The notes under the pieces are model-generated. The model had not been told where the DNA came from. It saw nothing but the letters and a program-made list of their open reading frames with translations, and searched no databases. DNA of 64,000 bases, taken from the sequence record ON184125; one strand, given 5' to 3'. The stretch's first letter is position 1, and each line of letters starts with the position of its first letter. This DNA is from Escherichia phage PC3. Shown in pieces: positions 1,171 through 58,599 of the stretch. The position numbers and the translations under genes are program-made.

Positions 1171-1198
1171 TTCAATAGATGAAGGGGTTGCTATAATA
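1171..1198 (+). promoter_or_regulatory. promoter candidate (TTCAAT, 16-nt spacer, TATAAT) followed by AGCAGC
   Basis: -10 TATAAT at 1193-1198; the 12-mer TATAATAGCAGC recurs at 10449-10460 upstream of the ligase gene. Confidence 0.35.
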
Positions 1199-1227
1199 GC
1201 AGCTCCTTTTGTTTATCGGAGCAGTTT

Positions 1228-1887
1228 ATGTCCTACTCCCTGAAGGGGCTGATGAAGCGCCCCGTCCACACATTCTTTAAACCACCCGTCGTAAAGGGGA
1301 TCTACCCAGCACGAGGGCAAATCTACTACGTCAAAGGCTCCAATGGTAGCGGTAAATCCACTGTGCCGTCTCAGCTGGCGGAGAGGGATCCTCAGGCGTA
1401 TGTCGTGACCCATAACGGCAAGGTAATGCTGACTGTCTGTCCTTCGTTCAACGTGGTCTGTATCGGTAAATATGACAAGTCGAAGTCCAAGGGGGTTGAT
1501 TCCCTGAAGGACACTGAGCAGATGTTGTTCGCGTTGTCTATTGCTGACCAACCAGAATACTTGAAATATGATGTGATTTTCGAAGGTATCATTCCATCCA
1601 CATTATTGAGTTCTTGGATCCCCCGCCTGACACGCCCACCACGTGAATTGGTTGTGCTCTTTATGGACACTCCCCTTGAAACGTGTATCTCCCGCGTTAA
1701 ATCACGTAACGGCGGTGTGGACTTCAATGAAAGTCTGGTGGTCGAGAAGTGGGAGAGAGTTCATGACCATCGTCAACGACATAAAGACTTGTTCCCTACG
1801 GTAGCTGCGGGTATGATGAAGTCTCACGGCCTAACGGTAGACCAGGCTGTGATGGCATTCCTCTGTCGTGATTTTGGGAGTATCTGA
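1228..1887 (+). CDS. P-loop NTPase / nucleotide or DNA kinase (candidate 5-hydroxymethylpyrimidine DNA kinase)
   Basis: Walker A GSNGSGKST; later IGKYDKSKSKG and IFEG motifs shared with the C-terminal domain of the 44142-45740 ORF; TGATG overlap with the downstream hydroxymethylase. Confidence 0.7.
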   Translation: MSYSLKGLMKRPVHTFFKPPVVKGIYPARGQIYYVKGSNGSGKSTVPSQLAERDPQAYVVTHNGKVMLTVCPSFNVVCIGKYDKSKSKGVDSLKDTEQMLFALSIADQPEYLKYDVIFEGIIPSTLLSSWIPRLTRPPRELVVLFMDTPLETCISRVKSRNGGVDFNESLVVEKWERVHDHRQRHKDLFPTVAAGMMKSHGLTVDQAVMAFLCRDFGSI

Positions 1888-2933
1888 TGGAAATCAAAGC
1901 AATTAACAACAATGACATGCTGAAGCAGGCTGTCTTGGCTATCCGTGAATTCGGGATCGAATCTGATCCTGGTAATGCTGAAATAAATACTGATAGCACC
2001 CGCTTCCTTGATGGCGTGACCATAACCGTCGCCGACATCCGTGACCGCTGGCTATCCGTTGAAGGTCGTAACTCATCGGCTATCGCTGCCATCGGCGAGA
2101 CCTTCTGGGTTCTGTCCGGGCGCGATGACGTTCGCTTCCTGTCCCGCGTATTACCTCGCGCTGCTAACTTTTCGGATGATGGGGTAACATGGCGAGCTGC
2201 TTATGGTCCGCGTCTGTACGCCCATGGCCAGCTGGATAGCGTTATCAACCGCCTGCGCAAGAACCCAAACACTCGCCAGGCGTACCTCACCATCTATGAC
2301 CCGGCTCTAGATTCGGATGCTGGTCTGGCGAAGTTCAGCGAGAGCGGCGAAGCAAAGACTAAGGACATGGTGTGTAACCTGGCTCTGTTGTTCGCCATCG
2401 TTGAAGGTCGTCTGAACCTGACGGTCATCAACCGCTCACAGGATGTTCTGTGGGGGATGAGTTCAATCAACTTCATTGAGTTCTCTATTCTTCAGGAAGT
2501 GATTGCTCGGGTGCTGGACGTTGACGTCGGTCAGTACAAGCTATTCTCTAACAATCTTCATTACTACAACAATGAAGTCAGCCAGAAGCAGCTTGGCAAG
2601 ATTACCAAAGACACAAAAGTCACTGGTGGTTTCATCAACTCCATGATTCACTTCACGAACGTGACCAACCAGAACCATATCCGCAATCTGTTCACTGGTG
2701 TGCTTCATCACTGTGATATCGGCAGCCCGTGGGAAACTGTGGTCGCCCACCTGAAGGAATATGATGCTGATCGTGGCCTGATTGTACAGATGGCGTACTG
2801 TCTGCACTGCAAACTGAACGAAAAGCTCATTAACCTGGACCTGATTCAGGATCATGGCTTGAACACCGCGCTCACCCATTCTCCGGTTGACCGCAAGATC
2901 GTTGATCCTAAGTTCCTGGAAGGTGTAGTATGA
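1887..2933 (+). CDS. thymidylate-synthase-family pyrimidine hydroxymethylase (dUMP/dCMP hydroxymethyltransferase-like)
   Basis: TS-fold motifs by eye: RQAYLTIYDP, candidate nucleophile Cys in MVCNLALLF, RSQDVLWGMSSINFIEFSIL resembling TS RSxD...FNI; substrate cannot be assigned. Confidence 0.7.
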   Translation: MEIKAINNNDMLKQAVLAIREFGIESDPGNAEINTDSTRFLDGVTITVADIRDRWLSVEGRNSSAIAAIGETFWVLSGRDDVRFLSRVLPRAANFSDDGVTWRAAYGPRLYAHGQLDSVINRLRKNPNTRQAYLTIYDPALDSDAGLAKFSESGEAKTKDMVCNLALLFAIVEGRLNLTVINRSQDVLWGMSSINFIEFSILQEVIARVLDVDVGQYKLFSNNLHYYNNEVSQKQLGKITKDTKVTGGFINSMIHFTNVTNQNHIRNLFTGVLHHCDIGSPWETVVAHLKEYDADRGLIVQMAYCLHCKLNEKLINLDLIQDHGLNTALTHSPVDRKIVDPKFLEGVV

Positions 2934-3499
2934 TGTACCCAAATCTTGAATTCTTTACGGGGCGCAAACGCTCCGGCAAGGACTTCTGTTTGGAGTCCCT
3001 GATCAGTTACCACCACTTACAGGGTGATATGGACATACAGCGCCTTTCTTTCTCTGATGAACTGCGCCGTGTAGCCAACTACATCTACCCATGGCTCCCA
3101 GCGGAGGTAGAGGATGCCGTGAAGGACGTTCCTTACGTGCACCCTGATAACCCCAAGGGCTTAACTCCACGGCAGATCTGGCTTCATCTAGGCAGCGATA
3201 CGGGCTTGCGTTATGTACAGCCTGATCTGTTCCTGGCATTCTTCAAGCGCTTCCAGCTTCCTCTGGTAGAGCAGAACCCCCACGTCCATTATATCGTGAG
3301 CGATCTGCGTACCCCTCAGGAATATGAATGGGCGCTGAGTACGAAATGTCCTATCACCCGTATTTCAAAGGCCGACCGTGCTGGTATCATAGAGGACGAT
3401 ATAGAGGCTTTCATTGACCAAATGAAAGTGGACTACGAATTCCTCAATCCATTTGATGGTTGGGAACCGTTCGTTAAATTCTACGGAGAACGTAAATGA
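2930..3499 (+). CDS. deoxynucleoside monophosphate kinase (T4 gp1-like)
   Basis: N-terminal FFTGRKRSGKD P-loop resembling T4 gp1 SGVKRSGKD; ATGA overlap with upstream gene. Confidence 0.65.
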   Translation: MMYPNLEFFTGRKRSGKDFCLESLISYHHLQGDMDIQRLSFSDELRRVANYIYPWLPAEVEDAVKDVPYVHPDNPKGLTPRQIWLHLGSDTGLRYVQPDLFLAFFKRFQLPLVEQNPHVHYIVSDLRTPQEYEWALSTKCPITRISKADRAGIIEDDIEAFIDQMKVDYEFLNPFDGWEPFVKFYGERK

Positions 3500-4050
3500 T
3501 CACAGCAGGGCATATCAAAAGCCTGCTCGAACTCCAAAAGGCCACCAACGTGGCCTACTTTGGGGAAGAGTGGAAGAATGTATGGAGTCAGAACGCAGTC
3601 ATCAACTCTATCTATCGTGAGTGGGCAGAGTTCCTTGATGAAACCACCCGTGACTGGAAGGTCTATGGCAACGACATCGGGTTTGACCATACGAACGCAG
3701 TTTATGAACTGGTGGACGTGGTACACTTCATGTTGTGCTTCATCCTTGTGGACCGCACCAAAGGTGAGATCGAAGAAGAATTTGAAGTCCTTAGTAATCG
3801 CGAATTCACCCCATCTGCTTTGGGTGTTGTAGGGCATCACAATGTTACGTACCGCCTTGGGCAATTCATGAACGATCCTTGCGTTGAGACTCTCATGTTC
3901 TTCCTGTCGTCTGCGTGTTCTTATATGGAGATCGACATTGAGACTTACATACTGGCACACAAACGCAAGAACGATCGCAATCGCCTGCGTGCTGCTGGTG
4001 GCGCGGATTACGATAAGTCTGCAGAAACCCCTCTGACCCTGGAGTTCTAA
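3496..4050 (+). CDS. all-alpha NTP pyrophosphatase (dCTPase/dUTPase-like, T4 gp56-type)
   Basis: EWAEFLDE and ELVDVVHFML motifs typical of MazG/dCTPase-type pyrophosphatases; located in the nucleotide-metabolism cluster. Confidence 0.5.
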   Translation: MITAGHIKSLLELQKATNVAYFGEEWKNVWSQNAVINSIYREWAEFLDETTRDWKVYGNDIGFDHTNAVYELVDVVHFMLCFILVDRTKGEIEEEFEVLSNREFTPSALGVVGHHNVTYRLGQFMNDPCVETLMFFLSSACSYMEIDIETYILAHKRKNDRNRLRAAGGADYDKSAETPLTLEF

Positions 4051-4592
4051 TGTTTACAGTCGTCGTTTCATATCATGCAGACAACGCGGCGAACGCATCC
4101 GCTAATTTCGCCGAGCACATCATCGGCGGCGGTCATAATGTATTCCTTACTGAATACACCAGGCCTGTTAAACCGGGCGACGGTCTTTCGGCGACTGTTA
4201 CGCATAAGATCGCCAGCGAGCAACCAGAGTCTCTGTTCAGGATGATCGAAGAGTATGCCGGTGGTGGCATCAAGATACCAGATGAACTGGTAGACGTCTA
4301 TTTTGAAGGCTCGATCTATTACATCCACGCTATGCCAAAGGATGTAACCATTGAACAGATGATGTATATCCTGAATATAGCACTGAACACTGCGTGCATC
4401 AACCGCACGAACTACAACAATCTGCGCAATATGTACCTAACCGACCGGCATAATGACGATGCGTCACTTGTTGAGACAATGTCCCTGAAGAGCATCCAAG
4501 AGGCGGTTAACATTTTGTCCCAGAAGGTTATGGGTGTAGACTTACTAACGACGATTAACAACAAAGAGGAAGTGAAATGGCCAGTTCATTAA
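4050..4592 (+). CDS. hypothetical protein
   Basis: 180-aa ORF, start overlaps upstream stop; no recognisable motif. Confidence 0.5.
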   Translation: MFTVVVSYHADNAANASANFAEHIIGGGHNVFLTEYTRPVKPGDGLSATVTHKIASEQPESLFRMIEEYAGGGIKIPDELVDVYFEGSIYYIHAMPKDVTIEQMMYILNIALNTACINRTNYNNLRNMYLTDRHNDDASLVETMSLKSIQEAVNILSQKVMGVDLLTTINNKEEVKWPVH

Positions 4593-17861: not shown

Positions 17862-18830
17862 TTAGAAGCTATCGCCTTCGGTTTCAAAGCGCCCTTTGTG
17901 TAGAGGCTCCAGTTCGATGAAGGTCATGTCAACCTGCGTGGACACGATACCATCATCTTTGTGAACCGCGTATGAACTGTCCGGCGTCTCGTTGACGAAC
18001 ATGTTGGAAAGTACACAAGTGGAGATGCGGTGCAGCCACTGGTTACGCTCCCCATTGACCATGAACGTAATGTCGAATGTTGAAGGATGCAAGTAAAACG
18101 CGCTGGAATTCTTGTTGTACTTGTACTCTGGGTACATGTGCATCTTGAACATGCGGATGATCTCACGGACCATCTTGGCTTCCTTCTGAGATCGCGGCGT
18201 GAATTTGAATGTAAATGGAATCTCACGGTTGCGAACACCCTGGAAGATCATCTCCACATATGGGTTGGTCATGGTGCCTGTGAACAACTCAAGGGTGTCA
18301 TGGGCGTTAATGCTCGGCAGGAATGGAATAGCCTCCGACGCAGATTGGATAGCCTTGGTGGCAGCGAATCGCCCCATCTCCTTCCCGACGTTGAGCGCAT
18401 CACCCAGTTTAAACTGAGTCATGTCTTGGGCGGCGCGGGAAAGGAACTGTGCTCCCATACCAGCCAACCCCAGCTCGCTACCGTTCCAGCCAACACCATA
18501 GTTGGTTGTAATGTACTCGGGCATACAAAGTACGATAGACTCGTTTGAACGAACGTGACGCGCCCATGCATATTTGGTGATGGAACCAGACTTGGACCCA
18601 TAGACCACAGGAGTATTCCCCAGAGGGTTCTGTATTGGGTTCTCGATAGTCTGAGTAGCCGTGTTGCCATAAGATGAACCGGAGATACGGTTGATGTTGA
18701 ATAGGACATAGTGTCCTAAAGTCTTACCCCCAGTAACGTCTAGGGGATAAGACAATTGCTTCTGAGCCTGGGACAATCCCTTCGTGTTCAGAACCTTGAT
18801 CTTATCGATTGTCTTCTTGAAGTCGGCCAT
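17862..18830 (-). CDS. hypothetical structural protein
   Basis: 322-aa ORF divergent from the gp4-like gene. Confidence 0.5.
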   Translation of the reverse strand: MADFKKTIDKIKVLNTKGLSQAQKQLSYPLDVTGGKTLGHYVLFNINRISGSSYGNTATQTIENPIQNPLGNTPVVYGSKSGSITKYAWARHVRSNESIVLCMPEYITTNYGVGWNGSELGLAGMGAQFLSRAAQDMTQFKLGDALNVGKEMGRFAATKAIQSASEAIPFLPSINAHDTLELFTGTMTNPYVEMIFQGVRNREIPFTFKFTPRSQKEAKMVREIIRMFKMHMYPEYKYNKNSSAFYLHPSTFDITFMVNGERNQWLHRISTCVLSNMFVNETPDSSYAVHKDDGIVSTQVDMTFIELEPLHKGRFETEGDSF

Positions 18831-18880
18831 GGTCTCAGCCCTTAAATAGATAGAGTGTTATGGCTATTTAGGACTAGATT

Positions 18881-19495
18881 ATGAGCAACTATCTTCAGGG
18901 GAAGTACACCCCAGTTAATCCCAAGAAGTATCAGGGGAATGTGAATAACATCATCTTCCGCTCTTCGCTGGAGTTGGTGGCTTTCAAGTTCTGTGATATG
19001 AACTCCGCGATAGTGAAGTGGTCTAGTGAGGAGACCGTAATCCCTTACATTTCCCCAGTCGACGGGCGCACCCATCGTTACTTCATGGACCTCAAAGTCT
19101 GGACGCGCCGTGAAGGGCAAGAGGAACTACAGGTCACCCTCATTGAGATCAAGCCCAAAGACCAGATCAAGCAGCCGAAGAAGACTCCGAACATGAAGGA
19201 GTCGACATTCAACAATGCGATGCGAACCTGGTTGGTCAATTCTGCCAAGTGGGAGGCCACCCGCGAACTGTGTGCCAAGAAGAACTGGAAGTTCATTATA
19301 TGGACTGAAGAGCATCTTGTTCCGGGTGAAGATCCGGATGTTCGTAAACAGTTTGAGCTGAAGTCGAAAAAGAAACGGGATATGGAGATGCAAGATCGCC
19401 GACATGCCGAACGTGTCAGGGTGCTGAAGGAACAGATGCGGAAGGAGATTAAACCCGCCCCAACGGAGCGGGATGATGGACTGCTCTTACCTTAA
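18881..19495 (+). CDS. head completion nuclease-like protein (T4 gp4-like, PD-(D/E)XK fold)
   Basis: YQGNVNNIIFRSSLELVAFKFCD...WSSEETVIPY...FMDLKV...LIEIKP pattern recalled from gp4-type proteins. Confidence 0.45.
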   Translation: MSNYLQGKYTPVNPKKYQGNVNNIIFRSSLELVAFKFCDMNSAIVKWSSEETVIPYISPVDGRTHRYFMDLKVWTRREGQEELQVTLIEIKPKDQIKQPKKTPNMKESTFNNAMRTWLVNSAKWEATRELCAKKNWKFIIWTEEHLVPGEDPDVRKQFELKSKKKRDMEMQDRRHAERVRVLKEQMRKEIKPAPTERDDGLLLP

Positions 19496-20124: not shown

Positions 20125-20634
20125 TTATTTGTCAGGGTTCACTAAAACAGGGGTGGATACCAGTTCGCCGCTCTTCACAGAATGCTGGACTACAACAATC
20201 TGATCGACCATGCGATATACTTCAATCCCAGCAGCCAGCATTTCAATAATGCCGTCTATGATACGATATGGTCGGTCATAGAACACTTTAGCGATCTTGC
20301 CACTGTCGATAATACGACGGGTGCACTCTGGGCATGGACTATGAGTGACAAACATCACCAGGCCACAACAGTCTTCAGTGTGCTGGGGGAGTTTGCTCAG
20401 AGCATTCTCCTCGGCGTGGATAACACCCACCGATACCAGTTGACCGTCTACTTCCTTCTCACAGACATTAGGAGCGCCAGGAGCAGTCCCGTTCCAACCG
20501 ATAGACAGGGGCTGGTCAACACGCGGGTCAACGATAACACAGCCGACCTTCAGGCGCTGGGCATAGCTGGACAGAGCGTATGCATGAGCCGATCGCATAT
20601 GCGCAAACAACATACGGGGTTTGATAGTCATCAC
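20125..20634 (-). CDS. deoxycytidylate (dCMP) deaminase
   Basis: Zinc-binding deaminase motifs HAEENAL and HSPCPECTRRII. Confidence 0.85.
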   Translation of the reverse strand: MMTIKPRMLFAHMRSAHAYALSSYAQRLKVGCVIVDPRVDQPLSIGWNGTAPGAPNVCEKEVDGQLVSVGVIHAEENALSKLPQHTEDCCGLVMFVTHSPCPECTRRIIDSGKIAKVFYDRPYRIIDGIIEMLAAGIEVYRMVDQIVVVQHSVKSGELVSTPVLVNPDK

Positions 20635-28739: not shown

Positions 28740-29562
28740 TATTATCTCCGTAAAATTTCAACCAGGCGGGATCTTCTTTTGGTATCCAACCTTTCTGAAA
28801 TTTAGATATACAAGTTTGAGCTGTGGCCTTAGAACAAACAGAGCTTAACCCGGTTTCTTTCAACATTAAACAATAACGGTTCTTCACTTTGTCTTCACCG
28901 TTACTATACCACCATTCAAAGAATTCACCAGCCAAGAGCCATTGTCGGGATTTACCCGTCTTTACGACAGTCGGGTGTTCCCAAGGTTGTATGTTATTCA
29001 TGGGATTGTTCTGGCGCCACATAGCAGAATACCTCTCCCTTTCTTCTGGTCGCCTCATCCGTTCGGTGACTGATTTGGTAAGATTGGCTTTGTGTGCTTC
29101 GGAGTGTGGTATCCCTTTCCTGGATTTTGACAACCTGCGCCTTGATTCGTCATTCCAAGTGTAACCTCTCAAACTATCCGCACGTTTCTTCTGTACTTCT
29201 GGGTTCAATGAGTTTTTCTTGGATTGCTTACGACAACGTTCCTTTTGTTCATCAGATGACATCACTTCTTTCATTCTGGTGGAATTATTTCTCCTCAATT
29301 CCCCAAACTCTTTGTTGTTCCTAGACATGTTGTTCATCCCAGTCCATGCCTTCCTGATACCGGGGTTGAGTGGTTTTGTTCTCCAAAGTAAGTGATGTAC
29401 GACATAATGTTCTTCTGGTGTCAACCATACAAGATTAGAGAAGTGGTTAGTGCCACCCAAGCACACAGGGATTATATGGTGGCGTTCTTGATAAACGCCA
29501 TCCATTTTACCTCTCTGTATTGCTCTCTGTATGAGAGCGTCTAAGATGATTTCGTATTTCAT
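28732..29562 (-). CDS. HNH homing endonuclease
   Basis: HHIIPVCLGGTNHFSNLVWLTPEEHYVVHH motif; C-terminal FQKGWIPKED module. Confidence 0.8.
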   Translation of the reverse strand: MKYEIILDALIQRAIQRGKMDGVYQERHHIIPVCLGGTNHFSNLVWLTPEEHYVVHHLLWRTKPLNPGIRKAWTGMNNMSRNNKEFGELRRNNSTRMKEVMSSDEQKERCRKQSKKNSLNPEVQKKRADSLRGYTWNDESRRRLSKSRKGIPHSEAHKANLTKSVTERMRRPEERERYSAMWRQNNPMNNIQPWEHPTVVKTGKSRQWLLAGEFFEWWYSNGEDKVKNRYCLMLKETGLSSVCSKATAQTCISKFQKGWIPKEDPAWLKFYGDNNG

Positions 29563-30140
29563 AAGCCAAATTTGCTACGCCACTTTTCAACCTTGTGTTC
29601 AATAGCGTGCTCCACTTTAATGCGAGTGGCCATCAAAGAGGATCCACGGATCGCCCCTTCCCCACACCCCATGCGCGCAACATGCTTGATTAGGTCATTG
29701 ACGAGTTGATCCAATCTGTCTTGACTGCGATAAGGCTGGTTACACAATCGGATAATCCGGCCATGATAATGATGGATAAGATTCAGATGCTTTTGAGGAT
29801 CACGATCAATCAGACGGAACCAGTCTTCTTCCAACAGATTAGAAGAAATATCGTTCACTATCGCCATGTGGTTGATGACAGAGTCGATCATTTCGGCCTT
29901 GTTCATAGAGCCGCGCATTTGGACGTCGTCATAATCCATGACGTACAGAAGGTCAATAGCAGAGATAATGACATCAGCAACTTCGCCATTCAACGGCTCG
30001 GAAGATACTATGCCATGAAACACATCAGACAGTTCACAGATCTCTTCACCTAGTTTGTTCAGAACAAACACAGGCGAACGGTCTGGGGTATGAGCAGTGC
30101 AGTCATAAGAAGTGTCGACGATAGTGTGTAGAAATTTCAT
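29559..30140 (-). CDS. MazG-like all-alpha NTP pyrophosphatase (candidate)
   Basis: LGEEICELSD and EVADVIISAIDL resemble the MazG EExxE/ExxD pattern. Confidence 0.4.
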   Translation of the reverse strand: MKFLHTIVDTSYDCTAHTPDRSPVFVLNKLGEEICELSDVFHGIVSSEPLNGEVADVIISAIDLLYVMDYDDVQMRGSMNKAEMIDSVINHMAIVNDISSNLLEEDWFRLIDRDPQKHLNLIHHYHGRIIRLCNQPYRSQDRLDQLVNDLIKHVARMGCGEGAIRGSSLMATRIKVEHAIEHKVEKWRSKFGL

Positions 30141-42357: not shown

Positions 42358-43584
42358 TCAGCGTTTCAAGAGTGTCATGAGGTTGACGCTGCTGGACTTC
42401 GGTTTATCAATCTTCGGTTTACCCAATTCTCGATACACCTGGTCAGGCTCCCAGCGCGTACCCTTTTGCAGGTGCCAGATATGCAGAGGAACACCAGTCT
42501 CAAAGAACACAGGCATCTTCCACTTCTGGACGCCTGGAACGTGCCCTGCAGGAGCCTTTTCGCACAACAGGGTATCTGGCAGCCAGAGCGAACGGGCTTC
42601 CCAGAGCGCTGCGCAGGAGTATTCAGGCCAGACGCGTTCCATGTAGTCTATCTCATCCCAGGTACGCTCTGCGTCCCACCCGATGTAACGAGTATTCTTC
42701 AGTCGGAAGAATTTCTTCAGCCAACAAGCACCGGAGGTTTCAAAGTTCAGGCGGTTGATGAACGTCAGGTGCCCGAACTCAGCCACACAATCCTGGAACG
42801 CCTGCTCAAGGTCGGCCTCAAGGATGTCACACTCTTCATCCGTGATAGGGCAACTGTTGATCTTTTTCTTCCCGTGTTTAGTCACCCAATCGTCACGGTT
42901 GGACAAGAACGCCGCGCCATTACGGTTGGACTCGCTTCCATCACGATCACGCAACATGAAGCCAGGGACGTCAATGGTGTATTCGTTCCCGAAGACCATG
43001 TTCAGGGCTTCCAGGAAGTTCCAGGCGCTCAGGCGACCGAAGTATTTCCAGGACATCGCCGTGTCCCACAGCTGGGTGAATTGTTCTGTCTTATCGATGC
43101 ACACCAACATCCCACGGAAAGCGTCATATTGAGTACGGCCAGCCAGCCAGTCAATATAGGACTGAACACACGGAATCATCTTGGACTTGCGGTAGCGACA
43201 GTCGGTATCGAATCGCATGCGATCAAAGTTCAGATTATACCAATCAGAGAAGCGCTGCATCTCTTCCTTAGACTGAGGCGGCACAGGGAACTCACTGTAG
43301 ATCGTCCACGGCCCGACGGCGTTATAGCAACAACCCCACAGGAATGCCATCCAGATCTTGCGCTCGACTTTCTGTTCGAGGCTGATGCCTTCAGTGACTT
43401 CGATCGCATAGTCCATCAGACGCATCTGCTGGTTGTGCTCTTCTGTGTAGGACAGCGCCTCCACCCAAGCCTTGAGCAAGTACATGCGATTCTCAGGCTT
43501 GCGATAATCAACAGCCAGGTCAATCGGGTACTTCCATTCAGCCGGAGGCGTATAGCCCGTCGGCATTTTAGATAAATGATGCAT
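42358..43584 (-). CDS. hypothetical protein (408 aa)
   Basis: Long ORF with no motif recognisable by eye; candidate accessory enzyme. Confidence 0.55.
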   Translation of the reverse strand: MHHLSKMPTGYTPPAEWKYPIDLAVDYRKPENRMYLLKAWVEALSYTEEHNQQMRLMDYAIEVTEGISLEQKVERKIWMAFLWGCCYNAVGPWTIYSEFPVPPQSKEEMQRFSDWYNLNFDRMRFDTDCRYRKSKMIPCVQSYIDWLAGRTQYDAFRGMLVCIDKTEQFTQLWDTAMSWKYFGRLSAWNFLEALNMVFGNEYTIDVPGFMLRDRDGSESNRNGAAFLSNRDDWVTKHGKKKINSCPITDEECDILEADLEQAFQDCVAEFGHLTFINRLNFETSGACWLKKFFRLKNTRYIGWDAERTWDEIDYMERVWPEYSCAALWEARSLWLPDTLLCEKAPAGHVPGVQKWKMPVFFETGVPLHIWHLQKGTRWEPDQVYRELGKPKIDKPKSSSVNLMTLLKR

Positions 43585-45740: not shown

Positions 45741-46045
45741 TACACAGCATCCTCAATACGCCAGCTCACGCCGCCCAGCCAAGGTGCCCAGAACACAGCA
45801 ACCTGTGGGCAGCCATTCTCTTCAAACTTAACTTTATACTGGTCGTCGAAGTTATAGAAGATTTCATCCGCTTCAGAGCGCTGGCCGATCTTCACCAGTA
45901 CATCATGAAGAGCCTTGGCTGCACCGATAGGAGTTGGAGTCTCCTGCTGGCGAATGAAGTTGTTCACATGGTTAATCACGCTATCCATGTCGCTATCACC
46001 GGAACGCTTGTCTGGGGTTTCCCCAAACTTGGATTGTTCTTGCAC
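45740..46045 (-). CDS. hypothetical protein
   Basis: 101-aa ORF. Confidence 0.4.
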   Translation of the reverse strand: MQEQSKFGETPDKRSGDSDMDSVINHVNNFIRQQETPTPIGAAKALHDVLVKIGQRSEADEIFYNFDDQYKVKFEENGCPQVAVFWAPWLGGVSWRIEDAV

Positions 46046-46054
46046 GATGTCCTC

Positions 46055-46834
46055 CTATCGGACGTATTGATAATGACTAATCAGGCGGTTAACCACTTCA
46101 ACAATATTGTAATTCAGGAAGTCGAAGTGATTCTGGCCTTCTACTGGTTTAATATAAAGCATGTCTTCCGAATTCGAAAGATCCAGTTTTTCATAATTGC
46201 CCTGAGGAACAAAGATGACAAAGATGTTGTTCAGGCCGCACGGCTCGACATACTTCGGATTGTCATCAATCAGGACATCGCCAGCCAGCAGATGCTTTTC
46301 GTCGGTGCTGACAAATCCGTTGAAGATACCAGGGAACTTGTCGTAGACAAACTGGCGCTTGCTGCGCTCGTGTTCCGGCTCACACTTGGACACTGCGATG
46401 AATTCAACATTGTCGAAATCTTCGAGCAAGATATCCTTCAGATTTACCAGGAACTCGTAAGCGCCGGGGAGCGGGTTCATCTTGGCGTACAAGTCAGGGC
46501 GACGCCACCAGTCCATAGGATCGTTACCGCTTGGCACACGTTGTTTGTGCATCCCCAATTGTACTTCATGGTATAGCCACGCCGGATGCGCACGTTCACG
46601 CATCAGAATAGCCAGGTCGCCAGCATGGGACATATAACACTCTTTGGTAATCGGCTGGAACTGGTATGACTTATGTTCCCCCGTAGCGATAGCAGCGGCG
46701 GCGATGTTCTCTTCGTTAAACCACTGCACCCAAGGGGAGAGGCTGTCGACCAACGTCAGGTCAACATCCACGAGGACGCGATACAGGCCACCGACCTTTG
46801 ATTTCATATCATAGATACAAACCAGGTTGTTCAT
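46055..46834 (-). CDS. HAD-superfamily phosphatase (5'/3'-deoxyribonucleotidase-like)
   Basis: HAD motif I VLVDVDLTLVD (DxDxT/V). Confidence 0.55.
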   Translation of the reverse strand: MNNLVCIYDMKSKVGGLYRVLVDVDLTLVDSLSPWVQWFNEENIAAAAIATGEHKSYQFQPITKECYMSHAGDLAILMRERAHPAWLYHEVQLGMHKQRVPSGNDPMDWWRRPDLYAKMNPLPGAYEFLVNLKDILLEDFDNVEFIAVSKCEPEHERSKRQFVYDKFPGIFNGFVSTDEKHLLAGDVLIDDNPKYVEPCGLNNIFVIFVPQGNYEKLDLSNSEDMLYIKPVEGQNHFDFLNYNIVEVVNRLISHYQYVR

Positions 46835-47181
46835 TTGTCTTCCTCAACTTTATCGTAGCCTGTAGCAACACACTGTTCTTCGGTACAATCTGCATACAGA
46901 ACGACGGAGGCCTGCTTCACGTAGGTGATGCAGTGGTAAGTTTCGTCTTCCTGGATGGAATCGTCATAATTGCAGACAGTTTGGAGCGGACCCGGAGTAG
47001 TGTTGTCCAGTGCTGCATGCGCCTTGATGGTGTCTTCCATCTTGGACACGGCCTGCTCATTGGTGAACGTCGGCGTGTCAAGGTCTACAGTAGAAGCAAC
47101 GCCCAGAAGGGTGGAACACGCAGTGGTAGAGAAAGCCAGAGCACACACCAGAAGAATCTTATTGAGTTTCATTTCAATCAC
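46831..47181 (-). CDS. putative lipoprotein
   Basis: Signal-peptide-like N-terminus with lipobox-like FSTTAC; several Cys in the mature part. Confidence 0.4.
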   Translation of the reverse strand: MIEMKLNKILLVCALAFSTTACSTLLGVASTVDLDTPTFTNEQAVSKMEDTIKAHAALDNTTPGPLQTVCNYDDSIQEDETYHCITYVKQASVVLYADCTEEQCVATGYDKVEEDK

Positions 47182-47202
47182 CTGTTTGTCAAAGGGTTAA
47201 CA

Positions 47203-47220
47203 GGGGGAATTATATCCCCC
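47203..47220 (-). terminator. hairpin GGGGGAAT-TATA-TCCCCC downstream of the DNA polymerase
   Basis: Perfect 7-8-bp stem between the polymerase stop (47235) and the next gene start (47181). Confidence 0.4.
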
Positions 47221-47234
47221 TTTGGTTTATTGAA

Positions 47235-48816
47235 TCAACCTTTCTTCTTTTGCATCATGGCAAGAAGGTTCACACGGCGCTTGTGTGACCAGCCGACCAC
47301 GTCGAGGATAGACTGAATCGGATCAATGAAGGACTTCTCAAAGGCCGCCTGATAATCCACCCATTTGCCCAGACCAAGCTCCTCGGGGAAGAACTCAGGA
47401 TATGCAAAGTAGTTCTGCCCAAACGGGTTGCCCGGCTTCAATAACACCATCTGTACCTTATCACCCGACTCGATCATCGGTAGACCCAGATCTTCGTTCT
47501 TCTCAACCAGACGGTTGTAGCCCACACACGCCTTGGCAGCAAAATGAGCACCAGATATAAACGAGCCGTCAGCAGCCACACACTTCTCTATGTCGGACAC
47601 GCCTGACGCCTTGGCGATATCGTCTACAGAGAGTTTCATGTACTCCTCTTTGTACTGGGAGATGAGCGTCTGTACTTCCTCTTCGGTGCCGAGTAGGATC
47701 TTCTCATAACACTTGACAAGACGCTCACGACACCATTCCGGCGTGGTGGACTTGCGGGCTTCCAGACCTTTGAACTTGATCTTCGGCTTCTCATACTTGA
47801 TACCCTCACTGTCGTACACGGCCATGGCATACATCTTCTTGGCTCGCCAGACAGCGGCTGACGCAATGACCTCACGCTCCCATACCATACGCTGTTCAAA
47901 TCCGTTCATGGTGTTACACAGAAGCTGTGCCCACTCATTGGTCTTCGGCTGGTAGTTGTCTTTGATCCATTGGTCGATATTATCAACCATAGCATGATGG
48001 TCAGTAACATCAGGCCACAACTGCTTGACAAGACGCTCAATGCAGATGTAGTTGGAGTCGGTATCACCTGCGATGACGAAGTCCTGGCCTGTTGTACCAC
48101 ACAGCTTGTTCAGATAGTCATCAGTGTAACGCTTGTTCCACTTGTTGATCAGCTGACCGGATGTGGTGATGGCTTCGGCAATGTTGAGGTTGAAGTACTC
48201 TTTGAACCAGACGTTCGAGATCGCGCCATAACCTGCGTTCATCAAGATCTTCAGACCTTGCTGTAGGGTATCTTGAGCGACGCCCAGGTCTTCCCACTTC
48301 TTCATCACTTCGGTCAGGGCATCAAGATCAATGTTCTTGTGCTCTTCATACCACTCTGGGTCATAGTAGCGAGACTTCATGGCAGACTCAAGATGGAAGT
48401 CGCCCTTCGACATCTCTTTACACCAGCCAGCCCACTGCTCATACTTCAGACCCTTGGCCTTCTCTACTTTACGGTCGCTGTAGATACCACGCATGATTTC
48501 AGACAGGAACGACATCTTCTCGTTGCTGAAGAATTGAACGTTCGGTGTGAACGACACGTTGTAGCGGCGCAGGGTTTCAAAGTGGAACTCACCCAGGGCA
48601 ACCAACTCATCAACAACCTGCAGGCGTTCGTCAACCGCACGCAACAGCTTGTCGTGAAGGGCTTTCATCAACCGACGTTTGTGCATCGGCGTTGCCATGT
48701 TATTCATCTGAGCAGCCAGCTCTTCACACATAGCCTCAATAATCTCGCGGCGCTGGTGTTTGTCGCCAACGATAGTCTCAGGACCGAGGTTGTACTGCTG
48801 AATGATGTGTGGATAT
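47235..48816 (-). CDS. DNA polymerase (family B) exon 2: second half of motif A through C-terminus
   Basis: Starts with YPHIIQQYNLGPETI matching T4 gp43 YPSIIRQVNISPETI; contains motif C VIAGDTDSNYICIE; both exons together are 3000 nt in frame. Confidence 0.85.
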
Positions 48817-49281
48817 CGCTTGTGTTCAGGGATGCTCGCTATTTCATCCCCCGTGTTCGTCATTCAGTTTACCGAACACTGCTGTATGTCACCATACAGG
48901 CCAGACTATATCACAATCTCCAGAACTGTCTAGAGATTCTCTCCATTTCGAGGCGCTTGCCCCTACTCTACTCGCTTCAGATCAGACGCTTAGTCGTCGG
49001 TCTTGCTTTCGATAGTCGTTGAACCTTGTCGCCCACTACTTCAAGGAAATCATCTGGGTTTAACCCAGCGTAACCAAAGAGTCGTTTGAAGTTTCTTGCC
49101 AACTTGCCCCACTCATTCTGGCAAACATTTCCTTCATGACCTTACTCCTTCACCGAGGTTACAGAGTATTTAGATCTTCGTGGCCGACCTTGGCTGCTGA
49201 TTATCTCTAAAGAGACTTCCCAGCAATTAAGAGAGTTATTCGATGGTTGTCGCCAACCAAAGCCCCTATGCTGCTAACTTA
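48817..49281 (-). mobile_element. group I self-splicing intron, ORF-less (~465 nt), inside the DNA polymerase gene
   Basis: Interrupts motif A between DLNSL and YPHII; 5' exon ends in U that can pair (U-G) with intronic GGGG guide; intron ends in G; GGGTTAAACCCAGATGA, ACGACTAAGCG and GATATAGTCTGGCC resemble T4 td intron P3 and P7 elements from memory. Confidence 0.7.
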
Positions 49282-53595: not shown

Positions 53596-54870
53596 TCAGG
53601 AAGGGGTGAAGTCGTTTACAGGAACTGTTTCAGGGATAGCCAGCTCAGGGCATGCTGCCTTCATCGGCTCTATGTATGGCTTGCTACCCACAATCCAGAA
53701 CAGAGTGTTCTCATTGAGCACCTCTGGCTTGTTCTGCTGGATCCAGGTCATGACCTTGCCTTCATAGCGAGGATGCAATTCGATATCACCCCACTGATAT
53801 TCCATCAGGTCATTGTAACGAACCCAATTAGTGGTGTGAAGATCCCAATGGTGTACCTCAAAGCGAGGAAGCACGACCTCTGGCTCTTCCTTCTGCCTGA
53901 TACCACTTAGGAGGCCAGCCAGAGAAACGCTCTTAGAGGCATGCTGAAGCTCCTTCTTGCCGTGTACATAGTCTGGGTTGTCGTGATAGCGACGGGTGAA
54001 GTCGACAATGTGCGGCAGATTGGCATGTTTGCCGATGATACGCAGACGGCTCTCAATGAAGTCCAGGCGGTTCGGACCGATGCCAATCAGATACACACGC
54101 TTCAGATTAGGCTTCGGATGCATTGCCAGCCCGGTCAGAATGCTTGTGCAAGAGTTGCACGATCCGGCTGGGATAATCAGATCGGTAATATGGTCAGGGA
54201 TGTTGGCAACCTGCTCGCCACCCAGCATATGGAAGCCAGCGATGCGCTCAGGAGAATGCGCTGTATGGTCGAGGGTGATACCATATTCCAGATAATACGC
54301 CTTTGGATTCTGTTGTTCGATCAACTTCTTACAGCGCGGCTGGATCGTGCTGTTGTAACCCGAGCCGACGAAGTTGAACTCACTACCAAACCAGGCTGAC
54401 ATTGCCACCATGTCGTGGTTCATACAGGTGGTGGGTTTGGTCGCTCCGAGTACAGTGGTTGTCTTGCCGCCGAAGTGCCGAGAGACTGCCGTCGCCATAG
54501 GGGACTGCGGACTACCAACGACAGTACCATGGATGATGTCAGGGGAGCCTCCAGTCTTCAGGTGCTCAACCATCAACCAGATGGCCTGGCGCAACTTACT
54601 GCCATTGATGCCCTGCTTGCCATTCATATAACAAGATAGCGGCGCGAAGTAATCTTCACGCTTGAACCAGACCTGCTGGTTAGTTTCGGGGTTGGCGACG
54701 AGTTCACACGGAGTGTGTTTGTAGAGGTAGTCTTCCCAGTGAATATGTTCACGATGAAGAGAGAGGACATCAAAAATCGTTTTGTATGGACCTTTCCCTA
54801 ACGTGTGGAACGGGATATACGTGCGGAACGGGATATATGGAGCGAGGGGTTGTGCAGCGAATTTGTTCAT
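53596..54870 (-). CDS. PLP-dependent fold-type-II enzyme (ACC deaminase / D-cysteine desulfhydrase-like family)
   Basis: KREDYF...NGSKLRQ (candidate PLP-lysine motif like KRED...GGNKxRKLE), SPQSPMATAVSRHFGGK, DLIIPAGSCNSCTSILTG, LFWIVGSKP align by eye with ACC deaminase motifs. Confidence 0.65.
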   Translation of the reverse strand: MNKFAAQPLAPYIPFRTYIPFHTLGKGPYKTIFDVLSLHREHIHWEDYLYKHTPCELVANPETNQQVWFKREDYFAPLSCYMNGKQGINGSKLRQAIWLMVEHLKTGGSPDIIHGTVVGSPQSPMATAVSRHFGGKTTTVLGATKPTTCMNHDMVAMSAWFGSEFNFVGSGYNSTIQPRCKKLIEQQNPKAYYLEYGITLDHTAHSPERIAGFHMLGGEQVANIPDHITDLIIPAGSCNSCTSILTGLAMHPKPNLKRVYLIGIGPNRLDFIESRLRIIGKHANLPHIVDFTRRYHDNPDYVHGKKELQHASKSVSLAGLLSGIRQKEEPEVVLPRFEVHHWDLHTTNWVRYNDLMEYQWGDIELHPRYEGKVMTWIQQNKPEVLNENTLFWIVGSKPYIEPMKAACPELAIPETVPVNDFTPS

Positions 54871-55584: not shown

Positions 55585-55606
55585 TAGTGTATCCTCAAAT
55601 CTATGA

Positions 55607-55636
55607 TAGGGGGTTAACGGTTAAATTTTAAACCCC
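55607..55636 (-). terminator. hairpin GGGGGTT...AACCCCC with AT-rich loop
   Basis: 7-bp G/C stem followed by TTTG on the plus strand; lies between the tRNA region and the 55584 gene start. Confidence 0.4.
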
Positions 55637-55954
55637 CTTTGTATCATTGAACAAACTATGATAAAGGAGGACATGCTTGGGCCGATAAGAAGATAATAAG
55701 ACAGGGATAAAAAGAAAGCCGGATAGGATATCCGGCTATACCACATCGATGGGATGGGTTGAAAGACTACACGCTTGCACTGGTACTACCCTATGGGAGA
55801 GCGCGTCAGGAGTCGAACCTGAAGTCGTCGACGTAGAGAAAGCTATTTGCATTTCACTATCCTCGCCTCGATTTTCTTAACTTCCTAAACACCCCGATTA
55901 CGAGAGAGTCGACATGCACATCTTCTAACTCTTCAGGAAGTCACGCCCGTAATT

Positions 55955-56043
55955 TGGCGGAAGGTGAAGGATTCGAACCTTCGGGGGCTAAAAGCCCCAC
56001 TCGATTAGCAGTCGAGTCCCTTAAACCTCTCGGGCAACCTTCC
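55955..56043 (-). tRNA. tRNA-Ser (anticodon GCU), type II with long variable arm, CCA encoded
   Basis: Manually folded cloverleaf: acceptor GGAAGGT/ACCTTCC, anticodon stem CTCGA/TCGAG with loop CTGCTAA, variable-arm stem GGGC/GCCC, T-arm GAAGG-TTCGAAT-CCTTC. Confidence 0.8.
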
Positions 56044-56296
56044 AATTTGGACGGGCTTCACACCCGATTGAGCATTTGATCTGCCGTAGCCCAACTCCCC
56101 GCGCTTCTCAGCGCCGATTGGTTAACTGGCGACCAGTGCCTTCTGGTTCGATCTCCTGGAACTTTACAGGCTTTGCGCCCGACCATTTCTGGAAGTTGGG
56201 GCATCGTTTCCGATGCGGAGTCATCCCCATTTTATACACAGCTGGCTGCAACGCTTACTGTGTTTGTCGGAGTGTTATGTTTCACACCCCTTAACA

Positions 56297-56373
56297 TGGT
56301 GATCCTGATTGGGTTTGAACCAATGACCAATGAATTATGAGTTCACTGCTCTAACCGACTGAGCTACAGGACC
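56297..56373 (-). tRNA. tRNA with CAU anticodon (Met or lysidine-modified Ile), CCA encoded
   Basis: Acceptor GGTCCTG/CAGGATC (one G-U), D-arm GCTC-AGTCGGTTA-GAGC, anticodon loop CTCATAA, T-arm ATTGG-TTCAAAC-CCAAT. Confidence 0.75.
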
Positions 56374-58395
56374 AAATTATTGTGTACCAACCAAGGACTG
56401 TCAACCCTTTATCCCGTTTGTGTATGATCAGTTCATGCATGCCTGTTTGTGCGCCTCACGGCATGCGCTTCTGTGGGTCTTTGGCTTGCACCATAGCCTC
56501 GCCACAGGCGTTTATTTTTCCAGGGCTTTCCACTTACAAGTCTTAACCAGACCGGGATACGGGCTTGTAAGATCGGGTTGGACACAACTTTGATAGCTCT
56601 GGTACTAAAGATCCCGCGTCACCCATAGACATGGTTTATAAAATCCAGAGCCATCAAAGTTGCAACCAAATGTTACAACTCGCAGCTTCCATGTAGAAGC
56701 AACTTGTCCTCTAACGCTCGGACCAAACTAGGCTGGCTGGTTGATTCAGAGCCGCTGGTTGCTCCAGCAAGCATGGGTTGATAGCCCGGCAACATAGAAT
56801 CACCCAAAGATGAAGAACATTCATGACTCACATCACACCACGAATGGCCTGAAAGAGAATCGAACTCTTTAAATGCTCTTCATTTTGTGAACTTGAGAAT
56901 ACTACGCCTGTCTCGGGTTTCCCCTTAGTTCGGCCTCCCAGTCCTCGCCGCGCCGGGTAGCTAACCCTGATGGCTCGTCTGCTACTGAGTTCTTCTTGGT
57001 GCCCACCAGTGTCCGGAATGTGTAGGCATCGCAATCTGCAAGGCATGGTCTATTTCACCCAATGCTCTCTCAAGTTCACAAATCGAAGTGCCCTGACTCA
57101 ACAGTATGGCCCAATATGCTGTTATCGTCCACCGGATTGGCCGTCCAATTTGTAGATCAACCTTTGGGTTTAAGATAAATTGTCAAGGCACTTCGATTTG
57201 TGTGCCCTTCACCTGCCAGGGGTCAGGGCTGATGGCAAGACTTCGCTCACATCTTTCAAGATACTCGTGAGAATATCCTCAAAGATGTGGGCCGTTTTAG
57301 GGAGTCGAACCCAAATGTTCAGCCAGCGCTGACCTTACATCCCATCTGACTCAGGCAACCCGCCTCTGCTTACTCAGGAGCTTATCCCCTTTGTGCAGTC
57401 AGATGTAACGGCATTTTATTTAACAATTCATTCAACTGATAACTTCAGGGGACCACTCTCATCTCCCCACATTTCGACCGCCCGGGACGGTTTAGTGGTA
57501 CGTCACTTGGTCTGTTACATGGTAGGAGCCGATTCTCCCTCGAATTACCTCTTGTTCGTATGCCTACAAACAATTTCACAGATTGCTGACAAGTTATCAT
57601 GTGAATGAATTGTCATTGTATGCCCTGACTTATTAATCACATCTCAGGGCCGCGATGCGCCAGATTCTGTTACAGGGAACTGGAATACCCCGCTGACTTA
57701 TAGGCTATTACGCCGCCATCAGAACTTCCGAATCATTAGCATTTATTTGCTTGGTCAGTTTCTAAAAACCCGCAAAGTCACGCACAACGAAAACGAAAAC
57801 CTGTTTGAGTCCTAAACGTACCTGTCTTAGTCTCACAACGCTATGAGTGGCCAGGACTCAAACAGCTTGCCGTTCAGTGGGTTAACTATACTTTGTAACC
57901 CGTTATTGATAAACCTTTTATTTTTGTTGGTGAGGGTGTCACCATCGATTTACCGGAACTTACGCATCCGGCCTCGCCTGTTGGTGATCCTTCGAATCCG
58001 GGAAGATCAGTAGGAACTATGAATCAAGTTAATTCAACCAACAGGAACCTTGTTGCCCTTTGACGCAACATTATGAACCCTCTATGGAAGACTCATAATG
58101 TTGTGGCGTGATGGAGATTAGCGCCCCCGACCTCCCCTTATATGTTGGTGTCGACTTGCCAACGGGGTGCTCTCTATTTCTGAGCTAATCACGCTACAAC
58201 AGGGAGTTTCGTTCTCCGACGGTCAAGTGCGTCCACTGACACCATGCAAGGTGGATATTGACTTATGGAGTCGGAGTCCTCGTCCTAGGACTGTGCTCGG
58301 CCTCAACCTTTACACCGCTGGTAGCCCGACCCTTTACACCATAAAATTTACTATACTACAGCCCAGCTAATTTGAAAAGTCCTCTCCTCTTTGAG

Positions 58396-58542
58396 CTACA
58401 CTGCCCACAGCAGTGCGGACGAACCTTCACTCAAAACCGGATGCGCCGAAGTGGGCGTCTGTTTACCGGACTGATCGGGTAGACCCAGGAGAGTAAAGGT
58501 AATCCCGATCAGGAGGATGAGGAGTAACATCATGTAAAACAT
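58396..58542 (-). CDS. small hydrophobic peptide (48 aa), below the ORF-track size cut-off
   Basis: Strong SD GGAGGG 6-8 nt upstream of ATG; MFYMMLLLILLIGITFTLLGL predicted TM helix. Confidence 0.35.
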   Translation of the reverse strand: MFYMMLLLILLIGITFTLLGLPDQSGKQTPTSAHPVLSEGSSALLWAV

Positions 58543-58599
58543 AGTGTTCCCTCCCTTCCATGCAACTAACTTTACTGCAATTATTTATTGAATAAAGCG

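Follow-up and report, generated by a model that had tools for sequence, protein, structure and literature searches.

We have analyzed a 64,000-nucleotide stretch of phage DNA (hereafter the window), which corresponds to the terminal 64,000 nt of the genome of Escherichia phage PH4 (ON184126.1; Ackermannviridae, Aglimvirinae), and we focused on a block of four genes at positions 1228-4050, which megablast found to be 100% identical to PH4 at the nucleotide level. It is highly probable that this block constitutes the core operon of the thymidine hypermodification pathway of the ViI type, found in Ackermannviridae. The base produced by PH4 would very likely be 5-(2-aminoethoxy)methyl-deoxyuridine (5-NeOmdU), because the amino acid:DNA transferase (ADDT) and the decarboxylase encoded further along the window are 88-90% identical to the ViI enzymes. 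The module is thus the published Ackermannviridae pathway in a published genome, and is already known. Its four genes, where 5-hmdU stands for 5-hydroxymethyldeoxyuridine, are the following:

1228-1887, plus strand: predicted 5-hmdU DNA kinase (5-HMUDK, HMUD1 type), orthologue of ViI gp67; 219 amino acids (aa), PF18748
1887-2933, plus strand: predicted dUMP 5-hydroxymethyltransferase of the thymidylate synthase (TS) superfamily; 348 aa, PF00303
2930-3499, plus strand: T4 gp1-type dNMP kinase; 189 aa, phrog_139
3496-4050, plus strand: all-alpha NTP pyrophosphohydrolase (dimeric dUTPase / T4 gp56 family); 184 aa, PF08761

An initial annotation of this DNA, made from the sequence alone, had described the hydroxymethylase gene as translationally coupled to a kinase gene on either side. 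All four open reading frames (ORFs) were confirmed in position and strand, with a stop/start overlap at each junction (TGATG at 1885-1889, ATGA at 2930-2933 and ATGA at 3496-3499). In megablast searches, the 2.8-kb block matched 251 phage records, 124 of them across at least 80% of its length, and the hosts of these phages are nearly all hosts of Ackermannviridae (Salmonella, Escherichia, Klebsiella, Dickeya, Shigella). Because 251 phage records match, the four-gene block cannot be attributed to chance. In GenBank, the first and third of the PH4 genes are labelled hypothetical, the second thymidylate synthase and the fourth dUTP diphosphatase.

The gene order of the window (gp67, thyA-like, dnk, dUTPase-like, orf62, uvsX, orf60, gp41) is common to Salmonella phage ViI, and the four core proteins are 88%, 76.5%, 91% and 61% identical to their ViI counterparts, respectively. 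The likeness to the hmdU DNA kinase arrangement of thymidine-hypermodifying phages, which the initial annotation had pointed out, is thus borne out by the gp67-thyA-dnk-dUTPase order of ViI. Lysates expressing ViI gp67, gp160, gp226, gp243 and gp247 turn 5-hmdU DNA into 5-NeOmdU in vitro (PMC5889632), and PH4 possesses orthologues of all five of these reconstitution genes, with identities of 88, 80.6, 90.5, 47.5 and 87.8%, respectively. 5-NeOmdU has been measured in the virion DNA of ViI, CBA120 and the Taipeivirus phiHS2, where it replaces about 40% of T in the first two and about 16% in the third. Conservation of the modification genes across the whole family Ackermannviridae is stated in a 2024 review.

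The product of 1228-1887 matches PF18748 (HMUDK_HMUD1) over model positions 1-195 of 196 with 363.2 bits (cut-off 27, E=3.6e-109). It carries a Walker A motif, GSNGSGKS, at residues 37-44, and its similarity to ViI gp67 extends over the full length of the protein, with flanking genes that are also alike. The hydroxymethylase gene adjoins it and an ADDT gene (PF18724) is present at 42358-43584. A weak match with the thymidylate kinases of phrog_761 was also obtained (2e-6), and a search of solved structures by sequence with this kinase returned P-loop noise only. It had been described initially as an unusual P-loop kinase foreign to the classical T4 pathway of 5-hydroxymethylcytosine (hmC). Both points stand: the protein is the syntenic orthologue of an enzyme that phosphorylates 5-hmdU inside DNA (PMC8989533), and this DNA kinase has no T4 counterpart. 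ViI gp67, in purified form, and gp243 phosphorylate 5-hmdU in DNA, with formation of a monophosphate and release of ADP (PMC8989533). Altogether, these data support the assignment of 1228-1887 as the orthologue of ViI gp67, with a predicted ATP-dependent phosphorylation of the hydroxymethyl group of hmdU in DNA. The label "terminase small subunit" found on orthologues of this gene (phrog_800, RefSeq) was considered separately and is a misannotation; the true orthologue of the small terminase subunit is located at PH4 positions 18753-19442, where it adjoins the large terminase gene.

The 348-aa product of 1887-2933 was aligned residue by residue with Escherichia coli ThyA, T4 gp42, SPO1 gp29 and an M6-like enzyme. 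It matches PF00303 with 56.9 bits (cut-off 24.3), and the catalytic Cys163 as well as the phosphate- and folate-binding residues are kept. The aligned pairs, with the E. coli residue given second, are Cys163/C146, Glu71/E58, Tyr106/Y94 and Arg130/R126, together with Arg183/R166, Ser184/S167, Asp186/D169, His225/H207 and Tyr227/Y209. The base-specifying residue is Asn195, equivalent to Asn177 in E. coli and Asn194 in SPO1, whereas T4 gp42 has Asp179. Other positions conserved in ThyA differ: Trp80/Trp83 correspond to a gap and Phe95, His147 to Asn164 and Gln165 to Asn182, and the short C-terminus by which TS closes its active site is replaced by a C-terminal extension of about 110 aa. The loss of Trp80/Trp83, the Asn in place of Gln165, the Cys-Asn dyad instead of Cys-His and the extension of about 110 aa are all common to the PH4 enzyme, SPO1 gp29 and the M6-like enzyme. 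SPO1 gp29 is the classical dUMP hydroxymethylase.

By BLASTP, the 348-aa enzyme is 34.8% identical to SPO1 gp29 (E=7e-33) versus 21.9% to E. coli ThyA (5e-13), and it gives no match with T4 gp42 at E<=10. Its best match in the Protein Data Bank (PDB) is the CMP hydroxymethylase MilA (5e-18), the best TS being found at 1e-8. Among PHROGs, phrog_3676 ranks first and phrog_5131, which contains SPO1 gp29 and the M6-like enzyme, second (2.6e-58), with phrog_160 (ThyA) at 4e-25. All seven NCBIfam TS equivalogs were failed, the best score being 55.4 bits for a cut-off of 327 (cut-offs of 108-427). No second TS homologue was found in PH4 by tblastn at E<=10, in a search that did not include ThyX. Given the equivalog scores, the signature residues and the closer kinship to SPO1 gp29 and MilA, we reject an ordinary thymidylate synthase, and the data support the prediction of a dUMP hydroxymethylase. 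The profile searches suggested in the initial annotation for 1228-1887 and 1887-2933 gave, on the one hand, PF18748 far above its cut-off and, on the other hand, a failure of the TS equivalogs with a match to the PHROG of SPO1 gp29; the hydroxymethylase with a TS fold proposed there agrees with the PF00303 match and with this grouping. The modified pyrimidine had been left open, and the evidence says that it should be uracil, judging from Asn195 where T4 gp42 has Asp179.

The two downstream genes encode the kinase of gp1 type and the dCTPase/dUTPase-like pyrophosphatase that had been recognized at the outset, and both share a PHROG with T4. The 189-aa kinase matches phrog_139 with E=1.2e-47 and T4 gp1 does so with 1.8e-65, their P-loops being GRKRSGKD and GVKRSGKD, respectively. 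By homology, the product of 2930-3499 is predicted to convert 5-hmdUMP into 5-hmdUDP. The 184-aa pyrophosphatase matches PF08761 (dUTPase_2) with 36.8 bits (cut-off 22.9) and phrog_173 with 4.5e-40, compared with 5.8e-39 for T4 gp56. Its closest solved relatives are dimeric dUTPases, and its acidic motifs EWAEFLD and ELVDVVHF, which we take to be metal ligands from established knowledge of the all-alpha NTP pyrophosphohydrolase family, align with the Campylobacter dimeric dUTPase 1W2Y; ELVDVVHF also aligns with ELVDIFHF of T4 gp56. This protein is thus predicted to be a dUTPase feeding dUMP to the hydroxymethylase, and is possibly also a dTTPase.

Other genes that could participate in the pathway are dispersed over the window and, for one of them, lie elsewhere in PH4:

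20125-20631, minus strand: dCMP deaminase (dUMP supply); PF00383 E=4.3e-16, phrog_174, 63% identical to the ViI dCMP deaminase
29559-30140, minus strand: second MazG-like pyrophosphatase
42358-43584, minus strand: amino acid:DNA transferase (ADDT / aGPT-Pplase clade 2), orthologue of ViI gp247; PF18724 E=7e-60, 87.8% identity
44142-45638, minus strand: second 5-hmdU DNA kinase HMUD2, orthologue of ViI gp243; 498 aa, PF18747 E=1e-156 over residues 202-497
46055-46834, minus strand: NT5C-like 5'(3')-deoxyribonucleotidase; PF06941 E=1e-8, 76% identical to ViI orf239
53596-54870, minus strand: decarboxylase dependent on pyridoxal phosphate (PLP), orthologue of ViI gp226 (O-serinyl-T to 5-NeOmdU); 90.5% identity
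PH4 46034-47254, outside the window: orthologue of ViI gp160; 80.6% identity

The dCMP deaminase that had been announced elsewhere in the window is therefore present, and the further decoration of the base that had been envisaged agrees with the ADDT, PLP decarboxylase and HMUD2 orthologues. The PF18747 and PF18724 matches, like that to PF18748, exceed their cut-offs by a wide margin. ViI gp247 transfers L-serine to DNA via its side-chain oxygen, a Cys and a Glu being essential (PMC8989533), and the window ADDT keeps ten of the eleven cysteines of gp247, C113 being replaced by Ser. ViI gp226 is a PLP-dependent decarboxylase whose product is 5-NeOmdU (PMC8989533), and the proposed PLP lysine K92, with its context QGINGSKLRQAIW, is identical in the window enzyme and in gp226. 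The SPO1-type hmU pathway comprises the dUMP hydroxymethylase gp29, a dNMP kinase, a dTTPase/dUTPase and a dCMP deaminase (PMC8989533). The deaminase, the NT5C-like nucleotidase and the MazG-like protein fit this pre-replicative scheme, from which the NT5C-like protein would be a candidate dTMPase, and the MazG-like protein a candidate dTTPase, both depleting thymidine nucleotides.

From these homologies, we propose the following pathway. Before replication, dUMP would be supplied by the dCMP deaminase (20125-20631) and by the dUTPase-family pyrophosphatase (3496-4050). The TS-fold enzyme would then attach to C5 of dUMP a one-carbon unit taken from methylene-tetrahydrofolate, and the exocyclic methylene would be quenched by water rather than by hydride to give 5-hmdUMP. 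The gp1-type kinase would convert the latter into 5-hmdUDP, the host nucleoside diphosphate kinase would produce the triphosphate, and the phage polymerase would place 5-hmdU opposite A. After replication, and by orthology with ViI, the kinase encoded by 1228-1887, aided by its paralogue HMUD2, would phosphorylate hmdU within duplex DNA at its 5-hydroxymethyl group, with ATP as donor of the gamma-phosphate. ADDT would swap this phosphate for the side-chain oxygen of L-serine and the PLP enzyme would decarboxylate the serine adduct, yielding 5-NeOmdU. Modification would concern only part of the T positions and would make the DNA resistant to many restriction endonucleases.

One would wonder whether the block could simply be an ordinary dTTP-supply module, in which a genuine thymidylate synthase would work alongside a kinase for thymidylate or nucleotides, a dNMP kinase and a housekeeping dUTPase, in a phage with canonical thymidine in its DNA. 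The GenBank labels "thymidylate synthase", "putative thymidylate kinase" and "dUTP diphosphatase" would fit such a module, as would the PF00303 match above threshold and the weak phrog_761 match of the first ORF (2e-6). However, the 348-aa enzyme reaches 55 bits where all NCBIfam TS equivalogs ask for 108-427, and it displays the SPO1 gp29 signature instead of Trp80, Trp83, His147 and the TS C-terminus. The kinase, with its 363 bits for PF18748, shares 88% identity with an enzyme whose action on DNA has been demonstrated, and dedicated ADDT, PLP decarboxylase and HMUD2 genes are encoded. We thus regard a dTTP-supply module as very improbable. A T4-like cytosine pathway, in which a dCMP hydroxymethylase, a dCTPase and a gp1 kinase would lead to 5-hmC DNA, could be suggested by the membership of the pyrophosphatase and the dNMP kinase in the PHROGs of T4 gp56 and gp1, and by the T4-like replication genes (uvsX, gp41, gp59 and gp43 among them). 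Its likelihood is nevertheless close to nil, since Asn195 is as in TS and SPO1 gp29 and not as Asp179 of T4 gp42, BLASTP gives no match to gp42 at E<=10, the encoded dCMP deaminase would oppose hmC production and the DNA kinase family acts on hmU. The identity of the 348-aa enzyme as a dCMP hydroxymethylase was ruled out on the first two of these grounds.

A third possibility is that the pathway ends at 5-hmdU or branches from it, so that PH4 DNA would contain plain 5-hmdU, as in SPO1 and as stated in older Ackermannviridae papers, or a final adduct unlike that of ViI. Agtrevirus papers still speak of an "HMdU" substitution; among them, the AV101 paper places PH4 with the Agtrevirus genomes and describes the substitution in these terms. 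Two further observations speak for such an end point and at the same time weigh against the ViI-type pathway proposed above. Our literature search found no chemical analysis of virion DNA for PH4 or any of the Aglimvirinae, and the paper on Dickeya phage PP35, which maps the orthologues in Limestonevirus of the same subfamily, describes the exact structure there as "yet to be determined" (PMC6336734). HMUD2 is a divergent and domain-fused allele, which has an extra N-terminal region and whose identity to ViI gp243 is only 47.5%. Other observations weigh against the ViI-type pathway in general. The PLP enzyme matches PF00291 with E=3e-7, below the gathering score. The similarity of the 189-aa kinase to T4 gp1 is weak by BLASTP, with a P-loop segment at E=0.003 and, collinear with it, a further weak match covering VSDLR/VPDTR, and this kinase has no sequence match among the solved structures of the PDB. 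In the literature examined, no assay is reported for the hydroxymethylase, the dNMP kinase or the pyrophosphatase of this lineage, whose activities are inferred from homology. On the other hand, the enzymes that determine the serine-derived adduct in ViI have close counterparts in the ADDT (88% identity) and the PLP decarboxylase (90.5%), with the PLP lysine and ten of eleven ADDT cysteines conserved. ViI virions are devoid of residual 5-hmdU (PMC8989533), and 5-NeOmdU is also produced in a third genus, Taipeivirus, which is equipped with the same genes. An end point at, or a branch from, 5-hmdU is therefore improbable in our opinion, and we retain the ViI-type pathway leading to 5-NeOmdU.

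Several observations concern the organization of HMUD2 and of ADDT. The first ~200 residues of HMUD2 match the C-terminal, non-catalytic half of homing-endonuclease PHROGs (phrog_314), with a second, weak match at the C-terminal end of the window's HNH endonuclease; no catalytic endonuclease domain was detected in this region, a Pfam search with its 199 aa giving no match at E<=10. GenBank names this ORF "homing endonuclease F-LimXI". The fused allele (at least 80% identity) has a scattered distribution, with only 28 records among Agtrevirus, Dickeya and Klebsiella phages, and in close relatives of PH4 the allele is of the unfused ViI type. An internal Shine-Dalgarno sequence with an ATG at 45062 lies within the HMUD2 ORF, so that the kinase alone could be made. 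For ADDT, the start is most likely the ATG at 43584, which is preceded by a GAGGAAG Shine-Dalgarno sequence and is collinear with the N-terminus of ViI gp247; GenBank places the start at 43566, 18 nt further downstream.

Directly downstream of the four genes, a fifth ORF is joined to the pyrophosphatase gene via TAATG at 4048-4052, and the coupling runs on into uvsX:

4050-4592, plus strand: phage ACT-like domain protein; PF24021 E=3.5e-79

This PF24021 protein was found in records of Ackermannviridae type only (n=269), and its gene sits between those of the pyrophosphatase and uvsX in all annotation-bearing rows among the matches listed. It may be a member of the modification module. One could imagine that accessory parts of the operon and distal partners decide which T positions are modified and how many, but we consider this idea rather unlikely. 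As a candidate accessory part, the ACT-like protein could be a regulator sensing a small molecule, for example serine, and HMUD2 of the PH4 type, with its domesticated DNA-binding region of homing-endonuclease origin, could have a sequence preference different from that of ViI gp243.

A hairpin is located upstream of the module, 19 nt before the ATG of the kinase gene, and is followed by a T-run:

1181-1209, plus strand: G+C-rich hairpin then TTTTGTTTAT, with TATAAT in the loop; 13 pairs, minimum free energy of -19.3 kcal/mol

The intergenic stretch upstream of 1228 is near-invariant between PH4 and ViI, the sole change in the stem being from a G-U to a G-C pair. A scan for sigma-70 promoters upstream of 1228 gave nothing exceeding the shuffled background, the perfect TATAAT of the hairpin loop having a poor -35. 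This element probably serves as terminator for the upstream gene, and it may also have a regulatory role immediately 5' of the module.

Elsewhere in the window, the NT5C-like nucleotidase gene adjoins the polymerase/HMUD2/ADDT cluster, and a group I catalytic intron (RF00028, 58.6 bits) at 48882-49269 on the minus strand splits the gp43-type DNA polymerase gene, whose coding sequences are annotated at 47235-48863 and from 49266; the ViI polymerase is a single uninterrupted ORF. Two tRNA genes on the minus strand, tRNA-Ser(GCT) at 55955-56043 and tRNA-Met(CAT) at 56297-56373, are found inside a stretch of about 3 kb (55585-58599) without annotated coding sequence, and a similar gap exists in ViI. 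The QueC-like gene of ViI (Vi01_023) gave no tblastn match anywhere in PH4.

Hypermodified thymidine shields Ackermannviridae genomes from many restriction enzymes, which bears on phage therapy, host-range prediction, sequencing and cloning. For this window, the practical value of the analysis lies in a corrected annotation, and the module itself opens no new biology. The labels to be corrected are those of the DNA kinase ("hypothetical" in GenBank, and "terminase small subunit" for its orthologues in RefSeq and PHROGs), of the hydroxymethylase ("thymidylate synthase") and of HMUD2 ("homing endonuclease" or "guanylate kinase").

The closest parallel can be drawn with the Kuttervirus ViI, which displays the same gene order, an overlapping operon, the five reconstitution genes and the conserved upstream hairpin (Lee et al. 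2018, PMC5889632; Lee et al. 2021, PMC8989533). Unlike ViI, PH4 belongs to the subfamily Aglimvirinae, and its HMUD2, 47.5% identical, is in frame with the region of about 200 aa derived from a homing endonuclease. Nothing substantive differs in Dickeya phage PP35 (Limestonevirus, Aglimvirinae), where the block is ~90% identical at the nucleotide level and the same functional assignment has been published, with ORF43 as dUMP hydroxymethyltransferase, ORF44 and ORF183 as kinases, ORF169 as PLP enzyme and ORF113 and ORF187 as aGPT-Pplases (PMC6336734).

The pre-replicative logic is also alike in SPO1, as the active-site signature and the C-terminal extension of gp29 are found in the PH4 enzyme (34.8% identity). 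However, a 47.6-kb portion of the SPO1 genome yielded no homologue of 5-HMUDK, SPO1 gp22.1, annotated as a possible dUTPase/dTTPase, has no similarity to the PH4 pyrophosphatase, and the DNA of the SPO1-related Bacillus hmU phage SP8 keeps plain 5-hmdU (PMC8989533), unlike what is predicted for PH4. The T4 hmC pathway has three enzyme families in common with the module, T4 gp1 and its PH4 counterpart belonging to phrog_139 and T4 gp56 and its PH4 counterpart to phrog_173, but it differs by its cytosine specificity (Asp179 versus Asn195 in PH4) and by glucosylation, whereas the decoration in PH4 would consist of phosphorylation by the DNA kinase that T4 lacks, amino-acid transfer and decarboxylation. 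Finally, kinase and hydroxymethylase are also associated in the M6-like Yuavirus locus of Pa-C, which is unrelated, and where a kinase 29% identical to that of PH4 is encoded ~1.8 kb from a hydroxymethylase 32% identical. The clusters of Pseudomonas phages M6 and PaMx11 and of Delftia phage PhiW-14 have the intermediate 5-phosphomethyl-deoxyuridine (5-PmdU) in common with the ViI type (PMC8989533), but rely on glycine and putrescine as nucleophiles and on a radical S-adenosylmethionine enzyme, a flavin adenine dinucleotide (FAD) lyase and an acetyltransferase, which lead to other final bases.

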